A DNA stretch of 64,000 nt from contig CACLWE010000001.1 in the NCBI GenBank assembly GCA_902610585.1, positions 110,970 through 174,969 on the forward strand. The letters are read 5' to 3'. Below the pieces are notes generated by a model, which was given only the letters and a program-made list of their open reading frames with translations, was not told where the DNA came from and ran no database searches. The translations under genes and the position numbers were made by a program. This document shows positions 37,601 through 51,488 of this stretch, in pieces; within the stretch, counting starts at the first letter, position 1; each line of letters opens with the position of its first letter. The DNA is from an uncultured Pelagibacteraceae bacterium (GTDB taxonomy: Bacteria > Pseudomonadota > Alphaproteobacteria > Pelagibacterales > AG-422-B15).

Positions 37601-38161
37601 TCATGTCTTAAAAAAATAATTTTCAATATATTCACAAATAATTTGCCCAACAGCTATATGCATTTCTTGGATTCTATCAGGTCTTGAAGATGGGACTTTG
37701 ATTAAAAAATCGCACTTTCCAACTAGATCACCTCCTCCTTCACCTGTTACACCGATAACTTTACAGCCATTTTTTTTTGCTTCTCTAACGGCATTTAAAA
37801 TATTTTTACTCTTACCACTTGTGGAAGTAGCGTAAAGAACATCACCTTCTTTACATAATGCATTAATTTGTCTTGAGAATATGTCATCAAATGAAAAATC
37901 GTTAGCTATAGCAGTAATCGTTGAAGTATCTGTAGACAAAGCTAAAGCAGCTAATGGTGCTCTATTCTTTCTGTACCTTCCAATTAACTCAGCAGCTAGA
38001 TGTTGAGAGTCTGCAGCGGAACCGCCATTGCCACAAAACATAATTTTCCCACCATTTTTAAGGCACTTAATTATAACTTGAATAGAATCATGGATTTCCC
38101 TGTCATTATTTGAAAGTTTATTAAAATTTTGTGAAATTTCTAAAAGTGTTTCTTTTATCAA
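37601..38161 (-). CDS. gmhA: D-sedoheptulose-7-phosphate isomerase (SIS domain)
   Basis: Contains GNGGSAADSQHLAAEL and ..STSGKS.N. motifs. Size is 186 aa. Confidence 0.88.
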   Translation of the reverse strand: MIKETLLEISQNFNKLSNNDREIHDSIQVIIKCLKNGGKIMFCGNGGSAADSQHLAAELIGRYRKNRAPLAALALSTDTSTITAIANDFSFDDIFSRQINALCKEGDVLYATSTSGKSKNILNAVREAKKNGCKVIGVTGEGGGDLVGKCDFLIKVPSSRPDRIQEMHIAVGQIICEYIENYFFKT

Positions 38162-38261: not shown

Positions 38262-39221
38262 ATGCATATTATAACGGGTGCTGCAGGTTTTATAGGATCT
38301 AATATTTCCATTGAACTGGATAGATTGGGATATGATCTAGTATTGTGTGATATTTTAGATCATGAAATGAAAATTAAGAATATTTCAAGTCTAAAAAAAC
38401 CATTAATAATTAAGCCCTCCCAATTGATAAATTTTATAAAAAAAAACTCAAAAAAAATTGAGTCAGTGATTCATATGGGGGCAATCAGTTCAACTGCAGA
38501 AACAAATTTAGAATTATTGATAAATAATAACTTAATATACTCTGAAAATTTATTTTTTATATGTAACAAATATAAAATCAAACTTATTTATGCCTCTTCT
38601 GCTGCAACTTATGGAAATGGAGAAAATGGGTTTGATGATAAAAACACTCTTTTAAATTTTATTCGACTCAATCCAATCAATTTATACGGACTGTCAAAAC
38701 ACTTATTTGATCTTAAAGTTTTAGAATCCATAGGAATAGGCAACATGGATAGTCGCCCGGTGGGCTTGAAATTTTTTAATGTCTATGGACCAAATGAGAT
38801 GCATAAAGGGTTTATGATGAGTCCTGTGCCAAAATTTTTAAAACAAATAAAAGAAACAAAAAAATTAAATCTCTTCAAGTCTCATAACTCGAAGATTAAA
38901 GATGGTAAACAGGCAAGAGATTTTATATACGTTAAAGATTGTGTTGATATTATTTTGTGGTTGATCAAAAATGACTCAATTATAGGAATCATAAATGTAG
39001 GAACAGGAATAAAAAAAACATTTCTAGAGCTTGCAAAGATCATTTTTAAAAATCAAAAAATAAAAGAAAATATTCAATTTATTCCAACTCCTAAAGAAAT
39101 AAGAAAAGGTTATCAATACATGACTAGGGCAAACATCTCTTTAATAAGAAAAAAAGGCTACAAAAAAAATTTTACCTCTCTCAAAGATGGCGTTAATGAC
39201 TACATTAATAATTACTTATAA
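38262..39221 (+). CDS. hldD: ADP-L-glycero-D-manno-heptose 6-epimerase
   Basis: Aligns block-by-block with HldD/RfaD as I remember it: TGAAGFIGSN, YASSAATYG, NLYGLSKHLFD, FNVYGPNE.HKG, RDFIYV.D and NVGTG. Confidence 0.85.
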   Translation: MHIITGAAGFIGSNISIELDRLGYDLVLCDILDHEMKIKNISSLKKPLIIKPSQLINFIKKNSKKIESVIHMGAISSTAETNLELLINNNLIYSENLFFICNKYKIKLIYASSAATYGNGENGFDDKNTLLNFIRLNPINLYGLSKHLFDLKVLESIGIGNMDSRPVGLKFFNVYGPNEMHKGFMMSPVPKFLKQIKETKKLNLFKSHNSKIKDGKQARDFIYVKDCVDIILWLIKNDSIIGIINVGTGIKKTFLELAKIIFKNQKIKENIQFIPTPKEIRKGYQYMTRANISLIRKKGYKKNFTSLKDGVNDYINNYL

Positions 39222-44322: not shown

Positions 44323-45126
44323 ATGATAAATTTTGGAGTTATGCAGGGTAGATTGTCTAAAAAACAGAAACTGCAGGAATTTCCGTACGAAAATTGGCAA
44401 AAAGAATTAAAATTGTTATCTAATTTTGGATTTAATTGTATCGAATGGCTCATTGATAAAAGAGATGATGATAAAAATATATTTTTTGATAAAAATTTTA
44501 CTTTTTTTAAAAACGAGCAAGAAATAAAAAATATACTAATTAGAAGTGTATGTCTTCACTATTTTATTGATAATCCAATTAATTTTGATGATGCACCTAA
44601 AAACTATTCATTTACATTTTTAGAATCTATTCTATCCATATGTTGTATTAATAATATCAATAATATAATTTTTCCAATTTCTGATGAATTACTAAAATTT
44701 AAAGGTCAGCAATTAGTCTGCTTCTTTGAAAGAATTTCTCGTTTAAAATTCATCAAACCAAATATTAGAATTTTATTTGAGGTTGATAGTGAATTTGAAC
44801 TGTCAATTAATTTAATAGATAGGTTAAATAAAAATTTCGATATTTTTGGTCTATGTTACGATTTAGGTAATGCAAACTATCATGGACGCAGCATAATTTA
44901 CGACTTCAAATTACTAAATAAGTATATTTATGAAATTCATGTAAAAGATAAGGATAAACTCGGTAATAATGTTTATCTAGGCAAAGGCAACGTAAAATTT
45001 GAAGAATTTAAAACAGAATATCCAAAACTTGGAAAATTAAATAATATAATATTTGAGACAAACACTTATCTTGATCCTTTGGATACAATGAAAAAAAATG
45101 TTAAATTCATTAGAGCTTTTTTATGA
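44323..45126 (+). CDS. xylose-isomerase-like TIM-barrel protein (sugar phosphate isomerase/epimerase family)
   Basis: At 267 aa it shows the pattern GVMQGRL...FP...W..E......G...IEW, later EIHVKD and FET. The assignment is moderate. Confidence 0.5.
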   Translation: MINFGVMQGRLSKKQKLQEFPYENWQKELKLLSNFGFNCIEWLIDKRDDDKNIFFDKNFTFFKNEQEIKNILIRSVCLHYFIDNPINFDDAPKNYSFTFLESILSICCINNINNIIFPISDELLKFKGQQLVCFFERISRLKFIKPNIRILFEVDSEFELSINLIDRLNKNFDIFGLCYDLGNANYHGRSIIYDFKLLNKYIYEIHVKDKDKLGNNVYLGKGNVKFEEFKTEYPKLGKLNNIIFETNTYLDPLDTMKKNVKFIRAFL

Positions 45127-46121
45127 GATTCTTAATTATTGGATTGGGATCAGCAGGACAAAGACACTTAAAGAATATTTATAGTATTTATCCGGGAAGT
45201 CATTGTTATGCACTTAAAAGCACAAATATTAATAAATTAATAAACCATAAAAATCAGCTTTTAATAGATAAAAGAATAGAGCATGCTTACAAAATAAAAT
45301 TTCTTAAAACAATAAACGAAGCCAAAATTATAAAGCCAAATTTTGTTATCATATCATCTGTAACATCCAAGCATCTGGAACATGTAGAGTTTCTTTTAAA
45401 GCTCGATTGTAAAATACTAATTGAAAAACCTCTTTCAAGTAATTGGCGGCATATTGATAAGTTAAAAAAAATAAAAAATATTGATAATAAGGTATTTGTA
45501 GGTTTTCAATATAGATTCCATCCAATTTTAAACAAAATTAAGAACACAATTAAAAAAAAATCATTTGGAAATTTAGTTTCTGTACATTTTTATAATGGAG
45601 AGTATCTGCCATATATGCATAAATATGAAAATTATCAAAATGGTTATGCTGCAGTTAAAAAACTAGGCGGAGGGTCATTACTTACTCAGATTCACGAGAT
45701 TGACTTAGCGCTATACTTTTTTGGCAATCCTATAAAAATTTTCTCAGTGGGAGGGAAACTGTCTAATTTGAAAATTAATGTGGAAGATTCTGTTCACCTT
45801 TTAATGGAATTCAAAAGGTTCCAGAAAAAATTCCCCACTTCAATTATATTAAATTTTTTGTCACCATTAAAAAAAGAAATAGAAATACTAAGTGATAAAT
45901 ATAAAATTACATTTAATTTTAAAGATAAGTTTTATAATTGTTATAATTTGAAAACTTTAAGAGAAAATAAAATTAAATTTAATTTTACAAGGGATGATAT
46001 GTTTATTGCAGAACTAAAGGCCTTAGTAAGTGGAAAAAATTCAAATAAATTAGTTACTTTTAATGAATCTATAGAAGGCTTAAAAATCATTAAAAGGGTA
46101 AAAAAAAATATTAGCGTTTAA
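45123..46121 (+). CDS. Gfo/Idh/MocA-family NAD(P)-dependent oxidoreductase
   Basis: Has an N-terminal Rossmann motif FLIIGLGSAGQRH and the EKP motif (LIEKPLS). It has an ATGA overlap with the upstream gene. Confidence 0.75.
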   Translation: MRFLIIGLGSAGQRHLKNIYSIYPGSHCYALKSTNINKLINHKNQLLIDKRIEHAYKIKFLKTINEAKIIKPNFVIISSVTSKHLEHVEFLLKLDCKILIEKPLSSNWRHIDKLKKIKNIDNKVFVGFQYRFHPILNKIKNTIKKKSFGNLVSVHFYNGEYLPYMHKYENYQNGYAAVKKLGGGSLLTQIHEIDLALYFFGNPIKIFSVGGKLSNLKINVEDSVHLLMEFKRFQKKFPTSIILNFLSPLKKEIEILSDKYKITFNFKDKFYNCYNLKTLRENKIKFNFTRDDMFIAELKALVSGKNSNKLVTFNESIEGLKIIKRVKKNISV

Positions 46122-46124
46122 TCA

Positions 46125-46871
46125 ATGAAAAATATTAAAACTTTTTATGCTTTAATTCCGGCAAGAGGAGGATCAAAAGGTGTTCCTAGAAAAAATATTG
46201 TCAAAATCAATGGAAAACCTCTAATCTCATATACAATTGAGCAATCAATCAAGTCTAAACTAATTGACAAAACTTTTGTTTCAACAGATGATCCAGAAAT
46301 TGCATTGATATCAAAAAAATATGGTGCAATCGTTCCATTTAAAAGGCCAAAAAAAATATCAGGGGATTTTGCTACAGATCTTGATGTGTTCTTTAACTTT
46401 GCAAAGTTTTTAGAAAAAAATGGTGATTTGCCAGATTATTTTGTCCATTTAAGGGCAACAAATCCAATGAGAAAGTTAACCACAATTGATAAGGCCATTA
46501 AGATAATGAGACAAAATTATAGTTATGATACTCTCAGGTCTGTAAACATAGCCAGTCAATCCCCATATAAAATGTGGCTGATAAAAAATAACAATTTGGA
46601 ACAATTAATAAAATATAGAAATTCTGATAATTCTCATTCTATGCCAAGACAGTCATTACCAATCGTATATTGGCAAAATGGATATATTGATATTATTAAA
46701 TCGTCAGTGATTTTAAAAAAAAGCTCAATGACTGGTAGCAAAATATACCCATTAATAATTAGTGAAAAGATATATGAAGTTGATTATCCTGAGGACGTAA
46801 TAAAATTAGAAAAAGCTATGAAGAAAAAAAAATCCACAAGCTTGAAAAAAGGAATAAGGTATCCAGTGTGA
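46125..46871 (+). CDS. acylneuraminate-type cytidylyltransferase (CMP-ulosonic-acid synthetase, CTP_transf_3)
   Basis: Has the N-terminal signature ALIPARGGSKGVPRKN. Size is 248 aa. Confidence 0.82.
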   Translation: MKNIKTFYALIPARGGSKGVPRKNIVKINGKPLISYTIEQSIKSKLIDKTFVSTDDPEIALISKKYGAIVPFKRPKKISGDFATDLDVFFNFAKFLEKNGDLPDYFVHLRATNPMRKLTTIDKAIKIMRQNYSYDTLRSVNIASQSPYKMWLIKNNNLEQLIKYRNSDNSHSMPRQSLPIVYWQNGYIDIIKSSVILKKSSMTGSKIYPLIISEKIYEVDYPEDVIKLEKAMKKKKSTSLKKGIRYPV

Positions 46872-47683
46872 AAGGGGATAAACTGAGAAACTTCAACCTA
46901 GATGGTAAACTTATCATTTTAACAGGTGGCGCGGGTTACTTAGCTGAAGAATTTACTGAGGAAATACTTAAATTTAATGGAAGAGTTATATTAGTTGATA
47001 TTAATTTAAAACTATTAAAATTAAGAATTAAGAAATTTGAAAAAGAATATAGAAATAAAATATTTACATATAAATGTGATCTTACTTCTGAGTCGCAGGT
47101 AAAAAAAATGTTTGGGGATATTGAAAAAAAGATTGGTCTGCCTAACGTATTAATAAATAATGCCGCTTCAAATCCAACCATGATTAAATCTTCAAAAGGA
47201 AGCAATAATTTTGAGAATTTTTCAATTAACCAGTGGCAATTCGATATAGCATCTGGTCTTACCAGTGCTTTTTTATGTTCAAAATATTTCGGAAAGATAA
47301 ATACATCTCAAAATAGAGTAATACTCAATATTTCATCAGATTTAGGATTAATTGCTCCAAATCAAGGGCTTTACCAGGACAAAACAGGAAGTAACTTTAA
47401 ACCAGTAAGCTATTCAGTAGTAAAGCACGGGATTATTGGTCTTACAAAATATACAGCAACGTTTTGGAATGAAAAAAATATCAGGTGCAATGCAGTAGCG
47501 TTTGGGGGAGTTTTTAATAATCAAAACCTAAAATTTTTAAATAAAATTAAAAAACTGATTCCAATGAATAGAATGGCAAATAAATCTGAGTATAATTCGG
47601 CGATAGTATTTTTAATATCTGATGCTTCATCTTATATGAACGGATCTGTAACAGTAATTGATGGAGGAAGAACTGCTTGGTAA
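46868..47683 (+). CDS. short-chain dehydrogenase/reductase (SDR)
   Basis: Contains LTGGAGYLA (TGxxxGxG-like), NNAA and the catalytic YSVVK motif. It has a GTGA start/stop overlap. Confidence 0.8.
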   Translation: MKGDKLRNFNLDGKLIILTGGAGYLAEEFTEEILKFNGRVILVDINLKLLKLRIKKFEKEYRNKIFTYKCDLTSESQVKKMFGDIEKKIGLPNVLINNAASNPTMIKSSKGSNNFENFSINQWQFDIASGLTSAFLCSKYFGKINTSQNRVILNISSDLGLIAPNQGLYQDKTGSNFKPVSYSVVKHGIIGLTKYTATFWNEKNIRCNAVAFGGVFNNQNLKFLNKIKKLIPMNRMANKSEYNSAIVFLISDASSYMNGSVTVIDGGRTAW

Positions 47684-48569: not shown

Positions 48570-49412
48570 ATGAAAAAAATATTTTTTATTGCTGAAATTG
48601 GAATTAACCATAATGGCGATTTGGATATTGCTAAAAAACTAATTGATGAGTCAGCTAAAGCAGGTTTTGACGCAGTTAAGTTTCAGAAAAGGACAATTGA
48701 TATAGTATATGATAAAGCTCTTTTAGATAGTCCAAGAGAAAGTCCTTGGGGAACAACTCAAAGAGATCAAAAAGAAGGTTTAGAGTTTTCGGAGAAAGAT
48801 TATCTCGAAATTGATAAGTACTGCAGGATGAAGAATATTGAATGGTTTGCTTCAGCATGGGATATCGAAAGTCTAGATTTTTTAGATCAGTTTAATCTTA
48901 AATTCAATAAAATTGCCTCAGCAATGATAGTTGATGAAGATTTTTTGACAGCAGTTGCGGAAAAAAAATTGCATACATTTATCTCAACTGGCATGTCCAC
49001 AATAAAAGATATTGAAAAAGCAGTTTCAATTTTCAGAAATGTGAACACTTCATTTGAGCTTATGCACTGTTTTTCCACCTATCCAATGAGGACTGAAGAT
49101 GCAAATTTATTAACCATAAAAGATATGAAAGAAAAATTTAATTGTGATGTTGGATATAGTGGACATGAAAATGGATTAGCAGTTTCATATGCCGCTTCAA
49201 TGCTTGGAATTTCCTCATTAGAAAGACATGTAACTCTTGATAGGACTATGTATGGATCAGATCAAGCAGCCTCCATTGAACCCAGAGGAATGCAAGAACT
49301 TATATCTGTAATTAATAAAATGTATATTGCTCTTGGAAAAATAAAGACGGGAGAAATATTGAAAGATGAAATTGCAATTGCAGAAAAATTAAGGGCTCAT
49401 ATTAAGAGATAG
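48570..49412 (+). CDS. NeuB-family sialic/ulosonic-acid synthase, catalytic barrel only (no C-terminal SAF domain)
   Basis: Contains FFIAEIGINHNGDLDIAKKLID.AK.AGFDAVKFQ, STGMS, GYSGHENG and LERHVT motifs. At 280 aa it is much shorter than the ~340-350 aa of canonical NeuB. Confidence 0.85.
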   Translation: MKKIFFIAEIGINHNGDLDIAKKLIDESAKAGFDAVKFQKRTIDIVYDKALLDSPRESPWGTTQRDQKEGLEFSEKDYLEIDKYCRMKNIEWFASAWDIESLDFLDQFNLKFNKIASAMIVDEDFLTAVAEKKLHTFISTGMSTIKDIEKAVSIFRNVNTSFELMHCFSTYPMRTEDANLLTIKDMKEKFNCDVGYSGHENGLAVSYAASMLGISSLERHVTLDRTMYGSDQAASIEPRGMQELISVINKMYIALGKIKTGEILKDEIAIAEKLRAHIKR

Positions 49413-49423
49413 AATCTATCCAG

Positions 49424-49753
49424 ATGAAAAAAATTTGCTTTGATTTAGATGGAGTAATTTGTAGTAACACATATGGTGAATACGATAAAGCCAAACCTAT
49501 TCCAAAAGCTATACAAAAAATTAATAGGCTATATGAAGAGGGAAATGAAATAATCATTTTTACAGCAAGATTCATGGGAAGGACAGGTGGCGATTTTAAA
49601 AAATCCTATGAATTTGGATTTGATCAGGCAAAATCTCAAATAGACTCTTGGGGATTAAAATATCATCAACTGAAATTGGGAAAACCTGAGTATGATATTA
49701 TTGTTGATGATAAAGGATTTGGATATAGTGAGAAATGGATTGATGAATTATGA
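49424..49753 (+). CDS. minimal capless HAD-superfamily phosphatase-like protein (109 aa)
   Basis: All four HAD motifs are present in order: FDLDGVI (I), IIIFTAR (II), KLGKP (III) and IIVDDKG (IV). Confidence 0.6.
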   Translation: MKKICFDLDGVICSNTYGEYDKAKPIPKAIQKINRLYEEGNEIIIFTARFMGRTGGDFKKSYEFGFDQAKSQIDSWGLKYHQLKLGKPEYDIIVDDKGFGYSEKWIDEL

Positions 49754-49783
49754 AACACTTATTTATAATTTTTGTATAATGTT

Positions 49784-50779
49784 ATGAAGATACTCGTTAC
49801 AGGAAGTGGTGGATTTATAGGTTTTCACTTATCTAAGTACCTTCTTGACAAAAATCATACGGTCTTTGGATATGATAATATGAACTCTTACTATGATGTA
49901 AAATTAAAAAGAGATAGAATTAAAATTTTATCAAAAAGCAAAAAAAAATTCATTTTTACTAAAGGTAATTTGGAAGATTTTAAAAAATTAGATAATGTAG
50001 TAAAAAAAAATAAAATAAAAATAATTGTTCATCTAGCTGCCCAAGCCGGTGTAAGGCATTCTGTCCAGAATCCGAGAGATTATTTTAATAGTAATATTAA
50101 AGGATTTTTCAATATATTAGAAACTTCTAAAATCAATAAAATTGAGCATCTTCTATTTGCATCTACTAGTTCAGTGTACGGTGATGGAAAAAATTTTCCA
50201 CTTAAAGAAACTGAAAATACCGATCATCCATTGTCTTTTTATGCTGCAACCAAAAAAAGTAATGAAGTAATGGCGTATGCTTATAGTCACATATACAATT
50301 TACCAGCTACAGGATTAAGATTCTTTACAGTATATGGCCCTTACGGTCGGCCTGATATGGCGTTATTTAAATTTATTAAAAATATGATGATGAAAAGACC
50401 TATTGAGTTATATAATAAAGGAAATCATATTCGAGATTTCACTTATGTGGATGATGTAGTTGTTTCAATATCGAAGCTTATAAATAAACCTCCAGTTAAG
50501 AAAGTGCCATATGATGTTTTTAATATAGCTGGTAATGAGCCTAGGCACCTAAAGGAATTTTTACGTATTATAGAGAAATATTTAAATATCAAACCAAAAG
50601 TTAAGCTTTTAAAGATGCAAATTGGAGACGTACATAAAACAGATGCTAATGTAAATAAACTTATTAATAAAATAAAATTCAAACCAAAAATAAAAGCTGA
50701 AGAAGGAATATCGAAGTTTATCGATTGGTATAAAAATCAATTCAATCAAGAAAGTAAAAAAAATGAAAATAGTTGTTGA
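49784..50779 (+). CDS. NAD-dependent nucleotide-sugar epimerase, UDP-glucuronate 4-epimerase-like
   Basis: Contains MKILVTGSGGFIGFHL, DN.NSYYDV.LK, YAATKKSNE (YxxxK) and RFFTVYGPYGRPDMA motifs. I prefer the ATG at 49784. Confidence 0.82.
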   Translation: MKILVTGSGGFIGFHLSKYLLDKNHTVFGYDNMNSYYDVKLKRDRIKILSKSKKKFIFTKGNLEDFKKLDNVVKKNKIKIIVHLAAQAGVRHSVQNPRDYFNSNIKGFFNILETSKINKIEHLLFASTSSVYGDGKNFPLKETENTDHPLSFYAATKKSNEVMAYAYSHIYNLPATGLRFFTVYGPYGRPDMALFKFIKNMMMKRPIELYNKGNHIRDFTYVDDVVVSISKLINKPPVKKVPYDVFNIAGNEPRHLKEFLRIIEKYLNIKPKVKLLKMQIGDVHKTDANVNKLINKIKFKPKIKAEEGISKFIDWYKNQFNQESKKNENSC

Positions 50780-51488
50780 TCTTTTTAACCAACATTCAGG
50801 AAATTTCTCAGAATTAAAGAGATTATCTAGTTTAGCATTTATTAATGGTGCTGATGTAGCAAAAATACAAATTTTAAACTCAGAGAGGATCTGGGGCGAT
50901 AAATCTAGAGAATATCTAGAACTTGATTATTACCAGGTAGAAGAAATATTTGATCATTGCAAAAAAGTTGGAATAGAGTTTTTAGCTACGGTCTTTACAG
51001 CTGAACATTTAGAATGGTTAGATAAACTTGGTATTGATAAATATAAAATTGCAAGTGTCACATCCAGCTTTAAAACTCAGAGTCCTGAAGATGATAAAGC
51101 ATTATGTAGAGAAATCATTGAAAGAAAAAAAGAAACCTATTTATCTCTTGGCTTTCAGAGTCCTAATGATTTTCCTTTTGGACTGAAAAGTCATATTAAG
51201 TATTTATTCTGTATTCCAAAATATCCTACCTTACTTGATGATGAAGACTTAATTAATTTTCCTGATAAATTTTCTTCTCAAGGATATTATGGTTACAGTG
51301 ATCACACATTGGGACTTGCAGCAGGCATTAAAGCATACATGAACGGATCCCAGATCATTGAAAAGCATTTTACATTTTCAAATTCATATCAAAAAACAAA
51401 TGAAAAAGGTCATTTATGCTCTTTTAATCCAGAAAGCTTAAGAGTATTTAGAAAAATCATCACTGAATTGTCTATTTTAAATCAATAA
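50763..51488 (+). CDS. second, divergent NeuB-family synthase-like protein, SAF-less (241 aa)
   Basis: Contains FNQHSGNFSELKRL...GADVAKIQ, GIEFLATVFT...YKIASVT, YGYSDHTLG and IEKHFT motifs. Both His-containing metal motifs are retained. Confidence 0.7.
   Translation: MKIVVDLFNQHSGNFSELKRLSSLAFINGADVAKIQILNSERIWGDKSREYLELDYYQVEEIFDHCKKVGIEFLATVFTAEHLEWLDKLGIDKYKIASVTSSFKTQSPEDDKALCREIIERKKETYLSLGFQSPNDFPFGLKSHIKYLFCIPKYPTLLDDEDLINFPDKFSSQGYYGYSDHTLGLAAGIKAYMNGSQIIEKHFTFSNSYQKTNEKGHLCSFNPESLRVFRKIITELSILNQ

Follow-up and report, generated by a model that had tools for sequence, protein, structure and literature searches.

Few bacteria of the ocean are as abundant as those of the SAR11 group, and their hypervariable glycan islands are thought to shape recognition by phages and grazers; the sugars that these islands encode are almost unknown. 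Here we ask what two adjoining genes of one such island make together. They lie in a 64,000-nucleotide (nt) stretch of DNA, hereafter the window, from an uncultured Pelagibacteraceae bacterium (GenBank assembly GCA_902610585.1, contig CACLWE010000001.1, positions 110,970 to 174,969 of the forward strand). The first gene, P0001, encodes a predicted phosphoenolpyruvate (PEP)-condensing synthase of the NeuB family that lacks the SAF (antifreeze-like) domain, and the second, P0002, a small predicted phosphatase of the haloacid dehalogenase (HAD) type. An initial annotation had suggested that this pairing marks a route through phosphorylated intermediates rather than free sugars. Having compared the window with ~170 related loci, gathered from the HAD side and the synthase side together, we put at roughly 50% the probability that P0001 and P0002 are a synthase–phosphatase pair on a route to a surface ulosonic acid activated with cytidine monophosphate (CMP), in the style of the pathways for 3-deoxy-D-manno-octulosonic acid (Kdo) and 3-deoxy-D-glycero-D-galacto-nonulosonic acid (KDN).

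Results

P0001 is a NeuB homologue without a SAF domain

P0001 is a 280-aa NeuB homologue in which the motifs initially described, INHNGD, AVKFQ, GYSGHENG and ERHVT, are all present. Its match to Pfam PF03102 (232.7 bits over residues 24–258, with the cut-off at 22.1) places it in the NeuB family, and it scores below the cut-offs of the NeuB equivalog TIGR03569 (236.5 against 399.65 bits) and of the PseI model TIGR03586 (182.7 against 340.25 bits). The SAF domain, which supplies a substrate-binding arginine in NeuB and PseI, is absent, as had been claimed: Pfam sees the NeuB barrel alone with zero SAF matches, and the TIGR03569 alignment spans model positions 2–262 of 329, leaving its ~67 C-terminal (SAF) positions without a counterpart. 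Because the HAD gene begins 11 nt past the synthase stop codon, a SAF domain in another frame is ruled out. Sixteen orthologues share without exception the residues E9, K37, Q39, K114, S117, Y171, N179, S197, H199, E218, H220 and D231, which, with the Neisseria meningitidis numbering mapped by motif positions, form a putative catalytic and metal-binding set. Invariant in the same orthologues are the basic residues K40, R41, R56 and K68 of the loop after strand 2, which are candidates only for binding the terminal phosphate of a sugar.

The best solved relative of P0001 is 6ncs (E = 8.5e-44), a structural-genomics entry named "N-acetylneuraminic acid synthetase" for which we found no functional test in the literature. 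The match is enough to settle the fold of P0001. At 290 aa 6ncs is likewise too short for a SAF domain, but it lacks 11 residues of the post-strand-2 loop that the P0001 clade conserves. This loop was considered as an insertion specific to phosphate-using enzymes and was dropped as evidence, since it has the same length in the PseI structure 8h2c. A possible likeness of the loop, and of the GYSGHE and ERHxTLD motifs, to animal N-acetylneuraminate synthase (NANS) was likewise set aside as evidence. The SAF-less clade is very abundant, with 8,000 scored relatives in our homology search. SAF loss is common and has already been described bioinformatically, 30% of nonulosonic acid synthases in UniProt lacking the domain, and SAF-less NeuB homologues have been counted rather than characterised (PMC8208679).

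P0002 is a capless HAD protein of the AfhF group

The 109-aa reading frame behind P0001 carries the four HAD motifs attributed to it, namely DLDGV (D7, D9), T47, K87 and D95-D96. D7, D9, T47, D95 and D96 do not vary across 24 homologues (45–64% identity), and K87 is retained in at least 90% of them. An AlphaFold model (pLDDT 88, pTM 0.82) consists of a bare Rossmann-like core without a cap, and its top structural matches, 9iqw and 1xpj, are capless HADs, in agreement with the annotated absence of a cap. Rather than being degenerate or missing in relatives, both genes recur in metagenomes as near-identical copies in the same order: a 98%-identical homologue of P0002 is on record and metagenome contig L137, whose NeuB is 91% identical, preserves the order NeuB, HAD, epimerase and second NeuB gene, so the P0002 frame is intact in near relatives.

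Sequence searches of the PDB returned 9iqw (E = 4.5e-11), which ranks above all further relatives, among them the Vibrio cholerae protein 1xpj and BT0820 (2obb). Foldseek labels 9iqw as AfhF of Escherichia coli phage HY126, a D-arabinose 1,5-bisphosphate phosphatase; with 31–32% identity to P0002 and a template-modelling (TM) score of 0.72 it is the closest characterised homologue. AfhF, capless like P0002, depends on Mg and takes off a terminal phosphate, which allows AfhE to form UDP-arabinose (PMC13326640), in a route that serves DNA hypermodification. Its partner AfhE is a bifunctional kinase/nucleotidyltransferase, whereas the partner of P0002 is a PEP-condensing synthase. On the HAD tree, AfhE-like partners occur in one separate deep clade and nowhere else, and no AfhE-like kinase/nucleotidyltransferase gene was found in the window operon.

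The best NCBIfam match of P0002 is TIGR01689, the EcbF/BcbF capsule biosynthesis phosphatase subfamily, and since its 36.4 bits lie below the cut-off of 162, P0002 is a relative of this subfamily and not a member; against Pfam Hydrolase_6 it scores 20.1, below the cut-off of 27. At E-values up to 0.01 it matched neither the models for KdsC and KDN-9-phosphate (KDN-9-P) phosphatase (TIGR01670, NF058599) nor those for GmhB (TIGR00213, TIGR01656), and no match to the KdsC/KDN-9-P phosphatase family was found anywhere in the source genome, G000. A Foldseek search with the model again put 9iqw and 1xpj closest. GmhB resembles P0002 in being a small HAD that removes a terminal sugar phosphate, but it is ~180 aa long against 109 aa, and the structures 2gmw (E = 1.2e-3, TM 0.56) and 3l8h are similar to P0002 at fold level only. 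P0002 belongs to the AfhF/1xpj/TIGR01689 group and by sequence is neither KdsC-like nor GmhB-like.

The HAD gene is coupled to the synthase in four phyla

Around P0002 we assembled 80 genome loci, four loci of SAR11 relatives and the window, 85 in all. P0002-type HADs recur there in four contexts: with NeuB homologues, with GmhA-like isomerases and RfaE genes, with AfhE-like partners and in ATP-grasp fusions. NeuB homologues are their commonest neighbours, present among the six flanking genes in 14 of the 80 genome loci and within 1 kb in 15 loci. The NeuB stop and HAD start codons overlap in L011, L038, L049 and L053, the genes are 0–14 nt apart in L014, L060, L137 and the window, and they adjoin in L056. 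(An apparent 438-aa NeuB–HAD fusion in L056 proved to be an artefact of the longest-frame rule on a GC-rich contig, with the NeuB match in another frame.) The genome loci among them belong to Pseudomonadota, Thermodesulfobacteriota, Chloroflexota and an unclassified metagenome-assembled genome, and in Actinomycetota loci the two genes adjoin divergently; the coupling of the window's HAD type to the synthase recurs in four phyla. The HAD gene stands 3' of the synthase in the window, L011, L014, L049, L053 and L060.

On the HAD tree, at least six changes are needed to account for the distribution of NeuB partners. The window HAD groups with those of L011, L014, L012, L013, L019, L035 and L021, all of them without an RfaE kinase inside 6 kb; with only 112 columns behind the tree, the grouping is a suggestion and not a firm result.

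Several HAD loci hold further arrangements. In the Thermodesulfobacteriota loci L049 (3244–5031) and L053 (3203–5014), from two genomes, a thiamine diphosphate-dependent enzyme of ~600 aa stands directly 5' of the NeuB–HAD pair. Gammaproteobacterial fusions of 414–419 aa join an ATP-grasp domain to a C-terminal P0002-like HAD (L061:5029–6288, L065:5035–6279, also L064 and L070), with a NeuB homologue ~2 kb upstream in L061, L065 and L070 and a CMP-transferase also in L061 and L065. In genome G044, a 618-aa fusion (L009:8371–10227) begins with a nucleotidyltransferase, continues with a P0002-like HAD and ends in 273 aa that have no Pfam match, an arrangement that resembles AfhE and AfhF in one chain; homologues of the 273-aa part occur together with the HAD in 11 loci, among them loci of Akkermansiaceae and Myxococcota.

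A second phosphatase family beside orthologous synthases

From the synthase side, a metagenome scan yielded 80 further loci with orthologues of P0001, 44 of them with at least 700 nt on both sides. A HAD of the KdsC/KDN-9-P-phosphatase type is directly adjacent to the synthase in 16 of these 44 full-flank loci, a GmhA-like isomerase lies within 700 nt in 21, and one or both are found in 28; in many KdsC-type loci the order is isomerase, HAD, synthase. A separate Pfam tally of immediate neighbours (83) gave CTP_transf_3 as the commonest with 20, followed by SIS_2 and Hydrolase_3 with 13 each, so that CMP-transferases head the list. Because an RfaE kinase occurs in only one of the 80 loci, the isomerase of these loci is not part of an ADP-heptose operon.

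The KdsC-type arrangement is also found close to the window. In SAR11 relatives G009 and G003 (synthase 57–61% identical) a KdsC-type HAD lies at the 5' end of the synthase gene, overlapping its start in G009. These HADs score 80–96 bits, their best NCBIfam match being NF058599 (96 and 83 bits, below its equivalog cut-off of 180) with KdsC a close second. In G056 and L033 it is the GmhA-like isomerase that abuts the synthase. In the SAR11 group KdsC-type HADs were seen only in glycan islands with NeuB genes, and the 24 near-complete genomes of the SAR11 sister family (G037–G060) yielded no gene of the KdsC family.

The two HAD types were never found together at one locus among the loci examined, and on the synthase tree orthologues with either partner are interleaved. 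One or the other type is present in six of the eight relatives with an orthologous synthase against six or seven of the other 53. In the window, an AfhF-type HAD stands in place of the cassette's usual KdsC-type phosphatase, and this swap is the new point of our analysis. Judged from these distributions, it is a non-orthologous displacement, and it gives the strongest argument that the phosphatase step matters and that P0002 performs it here. With two unrelated HAD families in the same position, selection would act on the dephosphorylation step rather than on the protein.

P0002-type HADs in heptose operons

The same HAD type has a second setting. In G050 a heptose operon (L218:3587–9763) consists of gmhA, transaldolase, rfaE kinase, rfaE adenylyltransferase and methyltransferase-like genes with the small HAD last; the transaldolase there is a source of sedoheptulose 7-phosphate. 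In L033, just downstream of a 70%-identical synthase, the order is gmhA, HAD, gmhA, epimerase and an RfaE-like protein in which the adenylyltransferase is fused to a PfkB kinase. The gmhA paralogues that flank this HAD (L033:5359–6917) are 193 and 181 aa long and score 174 and 120 bits against the gmhA model, and one of them may have changed specificity. P0002-type HADs fill the GmhB slot in G050, G058 and L033.

Canonical GmhB is present in 18 of the 61 relatives and the RfaE kinase in six, of which three have canonical GmhB and the others, G000, G050 and G058, carry a P0002-type HAD instead. In G000 itself, gmhA and an hldD-like gene lie in the window, and hldE, which is split, lies on contig 15. 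Canonical GmhB, RfaE kinase and GmhA are encoded elsewhere in the genomes of L049 and L053, which keep the NeuB-coupled HAD all the same; in that of L060, none of the three was found.

Gene content of the locus

The G000 assembly measures ~1.2 Mb at 30% G+C and is 77% complete; its relatives have genomes of 1.2–1.5 Mb, and the closest contigs in public databases carry the label Pelagibacterales or Pelagibacteraceae. In the window an rRNA operon (32.7–37.6 kb) is followed by the cell-surface glycan island, in which P0001 and P0002 belong to a 12-gene operon within a same-strand run at 43.6–54.5 kb (Table 1).

Table 1. Genes of the glycan island considered here, with positions in the window
Feature	Position	Strand	Basis
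GmhA-like sugar-phosphate (phosphoheptose) isomerase	37601–38161	-	SIS_2, 103 bits; gmhA model, 199 bits (cut-off 209)
HldD-like NAD-dependent epimerase, divergent from the gmhA-like gene; ADP-heptose module	38262–39221	+	Likeness to epimerase-family genes of related loci
Cytidylyltransferase of CMP-ulosonate synthetase type, probable activating step	46125–46871	+	CTP_transf_3, 84 bits; PseF-like, 128.5 bits
Short-chain dehydrogenase/reductase (SDR) oxidoreductase	46868–47683	+	adh_short_C2, 126.5 bits
P0001, SAF-less NeuB-family PEP-condensing synthase (predicted), 280 aa	48570–49412	+	Pfam NeuB; TIGR03569
P0002, capless HAD phosphatase (predicted), AfhF/1xpj/TIGR01689 group, 109 aa	49424–49753	+	Motifs; PDB matches; model
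Nucleoside diphosphate-sugar epimerase/dehydratase, next gene 3' of the HAD gene	49772–50779	+	Pfam Epimerase, 187 bits
Second, divergent SAF-less NeuB-like gene	50763–51488	+	Pfam NeuB, 97.6 bits

Several of these genes have counterparts at the related loci. The GmhA-like isomerase, the sole one found in G000, is 48–51% identical to isomerases that directly adjoin orthologous synthases in L121 and L033; homologues of the SDR (41–48% identity) adjoin orthologous synthases in L033, L121, L122, L123 and L143; and homologues of the epimerase that follows P0002 (54–60% identity) occur in L011, L124 and L208. Upstream, at 44323–46121, are genes for a xylose-isomerase-like TIM barrel and a Gfo/Idh/MocA oxidoreductase with weak similarity to inositol dehydrogenase, which accompany the synthase in several relatives (L033, L121, L019) and may tailor the ulosonic acid. 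Family-model searches of the operon proteins found neither precursor genes of the NeuC, Pse or Leg type nor a kinase, and for this reason a central sugar phosphate is the simplest substrate to propose.

Discussion

We envision a pathway, read from gene content and homology, in which the GmhA-like isomerase would convert a central ketose phosphate to an aldose carrying the phosphate at its far (omega) end, the SAF-less NeuB homologue would condense this aldose phosphate with PEP to a 3-deoxy-ulosonate omega-phosphate, the capless HAD would take off the terminal phosphate, and the cytidylyltransferase would activate the free acid. Tailoring would fall to the SDR, Gfo/Idh/MocA, TIM-barrel and methyltransferase genes. 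The product would be either a KDN-like nine-carbon acid or a ten-carbon acid derived from heptose phosphate. That P0002 dephosphorylates the phosphorylated product of the synthase, possibly on top of a GmhB role, is in our view an even bet, and P0002 may also serve as the GmhB of G000.

The identity of the isomerase bears on the sugar. Having a GmhA-like partner suggests a heptose phosphate as substrate as much as mannose 6-phosphate (Man-6-P) or N-acetylmannosamine 6-phosphate. A GmhA-type enzyme would provide chemistry like that for Man-6-P only if its specificity had shifted, and its usual specificity would lead to heptose 7-phosphate and a ten-carbon acid. More specifically, the synthase could condense D-glycero-D-manno-heptose 7-phosphate from the GmhA-like isomerase with PEP to a ten-carbon 3-deoxy-ulosonic acid 10-phosphate, one small HAD then serving the ADP-heptose branch and the ten-carbon branch alike; we regard this version as unlikely. 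It would account for the replacement of a KdsC-type by an AfhF-type HAD, since the latter would already recognise the heptose 7-phosphate tail of heptose 1,7-bisphosphate. To our knowledge, ten-carbon 3-deoxy-ulosonic acids are a class of sugars without a described pathway.

The phosphorylated route is established in a bacterium for KDN in Bacteroides. Wang et al. in 2008 and Lu et al. in 2009 reportedly described this pathway in Bacteroides thetaiotaomicron, with BT1714 as KDN-9-P synthase, BT1713 as KDN-9-P phosphatase and a CMP-KDN synthetase. The window shares with it a NeuB-family synthase, a small capless HAD and a CMP-transferase, without NeuC, Pse or Leg genes, and NF058599, the model for the B. 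thetaiotaomicron KDN-9-P phosphatase, is the best match for the phosphatases of orthologous loci (83–96 bits). It differs in that the window phosphatase is of another family and a GmhA-like isomerase is an added regular partner of the synthase clade. The Kdo pathway (KdsD, KdsA, KdsC, KdsB) offers the same succession of isomerase, PEP condensation with an aldose phosphate, omega-dephosphorylation and CMP activation, but there the synthase is KdsA rather than a NeuB-family enzyme, the isomerase is KdsD rather than GmhA-like, and the phosphatase is not of the AfhF type. Comparative genomics favours the phosphorylated route proposed in the initial annotation, through the KdsC-type HADs, GmhA-like isomerases and CMP-transferases that neighbour orthologous synthases, while P0002 itself stands outside the KdsC/KDN-9-P-phosphatase family to which the comparison had pointed. 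In the other precedent offered, N-acetylneuraminate synthesis in animals, one detail needs correction: the phosphatase for N-acetylneuraminate 9-phosphate is there a capped (C1) HAD and not of the C0 type.

Several observations weigh against a synthase–phosphatase pair. The substrate of AfhF, which alone among the relatives of P0002 has been characterised, is a sugar 1,5-bisphosphate and not an ulosonate phosphate (PMC13326640). In 16 of the 44 full-flank loci neither HAD nor isomerase lies beside the synthase, and the complete genomes G056 and G040 carry a synthase orthologue but lack both HAD types, so the synthase does not strictly require a phosphatase of its own. We found no published assay for any member of the SAF-less synthase family, and neither this synthase clade nor the HAD subclade of P0002 is known to include an assayed enzyme. 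P0002-type HADs sit in the gmhA/rfaE heptose operons of G050, G058 and L033, genes for an RfaE kinase and adenylyltransferase occur within 6 kb in 14 of the 85 HAD loci, alongside a GmhA-like isomerase, and no canonical GmhB was found in the assembled 77% of G000.

The last of these points lead to an explanation that we hold to be somewhat unlikely, in which P0002 is the GmhB analogue of G000, removing the 7-phosphate of D-glycero-D-manno-heptose 1,7-bisphosphate on the way to ADP-heptose, and stands behind a NeuB gene by an accident of island assembly. AfhF performs the equivalent step on arabinose 1,5-bisphosphate, the HAD closes the gmhA–transaldolase–rfaE operon of G050 and lies between the gmhA paralogues of L033, and in three of the six relatives with an RfaE kinase it is present in lieu of GmhB. 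This three-to-three pattern, however, comes from related genomes and small numbers. The argument from the missing GmhB is weak alone, because GmhB is found in only 18 of the 61 relatives and the kinase in only six, and a canonical gene may simply be unassembled in a genome that is 77% complete. The position of the window HAD speaks for a link to the synthase: it lies 11 nt behind P0001 inside the 12-gene operon, separated from gmhA/hldD by 11 kb and a tRNA gene, with hldE on another contig. Its nearest relatives are coupled to NeuB or occupy housekeeping contexts, none beside RfaE genes, and L049 and L053 retain the coupled copy in genomes with a full canonical heptose set. The GmhB-like function that the initial annotation had named as its alternative draws real support from the heptose-operon contexts and the distribution of GmhB among the relatives, and it is a serious rival for this genome.

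The order of events could also be reversed: the HAD would first dephosphorylate the aldose phosphate that comes from the isomerase, and free sugar would then be condensed with PEP by the SAF-less enzyme as it is by NeuB, PseI and LegI. The many KdsC-type loci in which isomerase, HAD and synthase follow one another agree equally with this sequence, and the bacterial NeuB-family structures that match P0001 are all annotated as free-sugar synthases. We nevertheless consider it quite improbable: the characterised members of the KdsC family, the usual partner of the clade, take ulosonate omega-phosphates (Kdo-8-phosphate, KDN-9-P), the HAD gene follows the synthase in the window and in five further loci, and free aldoses such as heptose would probably be lost to a cell without a trapping step. 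That the two genes share no function at all, P0002 being a general phosphatase of small molecules or nucleotides that travels as a passenger in a hypervariable glycan island, seems highly improbable, even though about half of the 85 HAD loci are without any recognised partner gene and several homologues sit in conserved non-glycan contexts, for example beside an Fe-S assembly gene or a CLC channel. That stop and start codons overlap with one and the same synthase clade across several phyla, and that another family of sugar-acid phosphatases is exchanged for it at the same position, is hard to ascribe to chance. Among these readings we favor a model in which P0002 acts on the product of P0001.

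If the clade does run on phosphorylated intermediates, thousands of "N-acetylneuraminate synthase" annotations would change, and the phosphate-tagged route of animals and Bacteroides would be widespread among environmental microbes. The exchange of phosphatases amounts to a natural experiment, and it ties the phosphatase step to the heptose bisphosphate phosphatases. The window contributes an AfhF-type variant of the cassette, and the same HAD type is documented in a second life in the heptose operons of SAR11.

An animal-like phosphorylated route was proposed earlier by Ricaldi et al. in 2012 (PMC3438082) for Leptospira interrogans, whose NeuB has a "phosphatase" domain fused to its C terminus. 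There, too, a synthase is physically linked to a putative phosphatase and the route is a proposal; the linked domain differs in being endonuclease-like and not a HAD. Two relatives of the window genome recall this fusion. Their NeuB-family matches (G007:C7:51168–51953 and G038:C1:476221–476961) are parts of longer open frames, of 810 and 830 aa, so the NeuB domains are fused to other domains.

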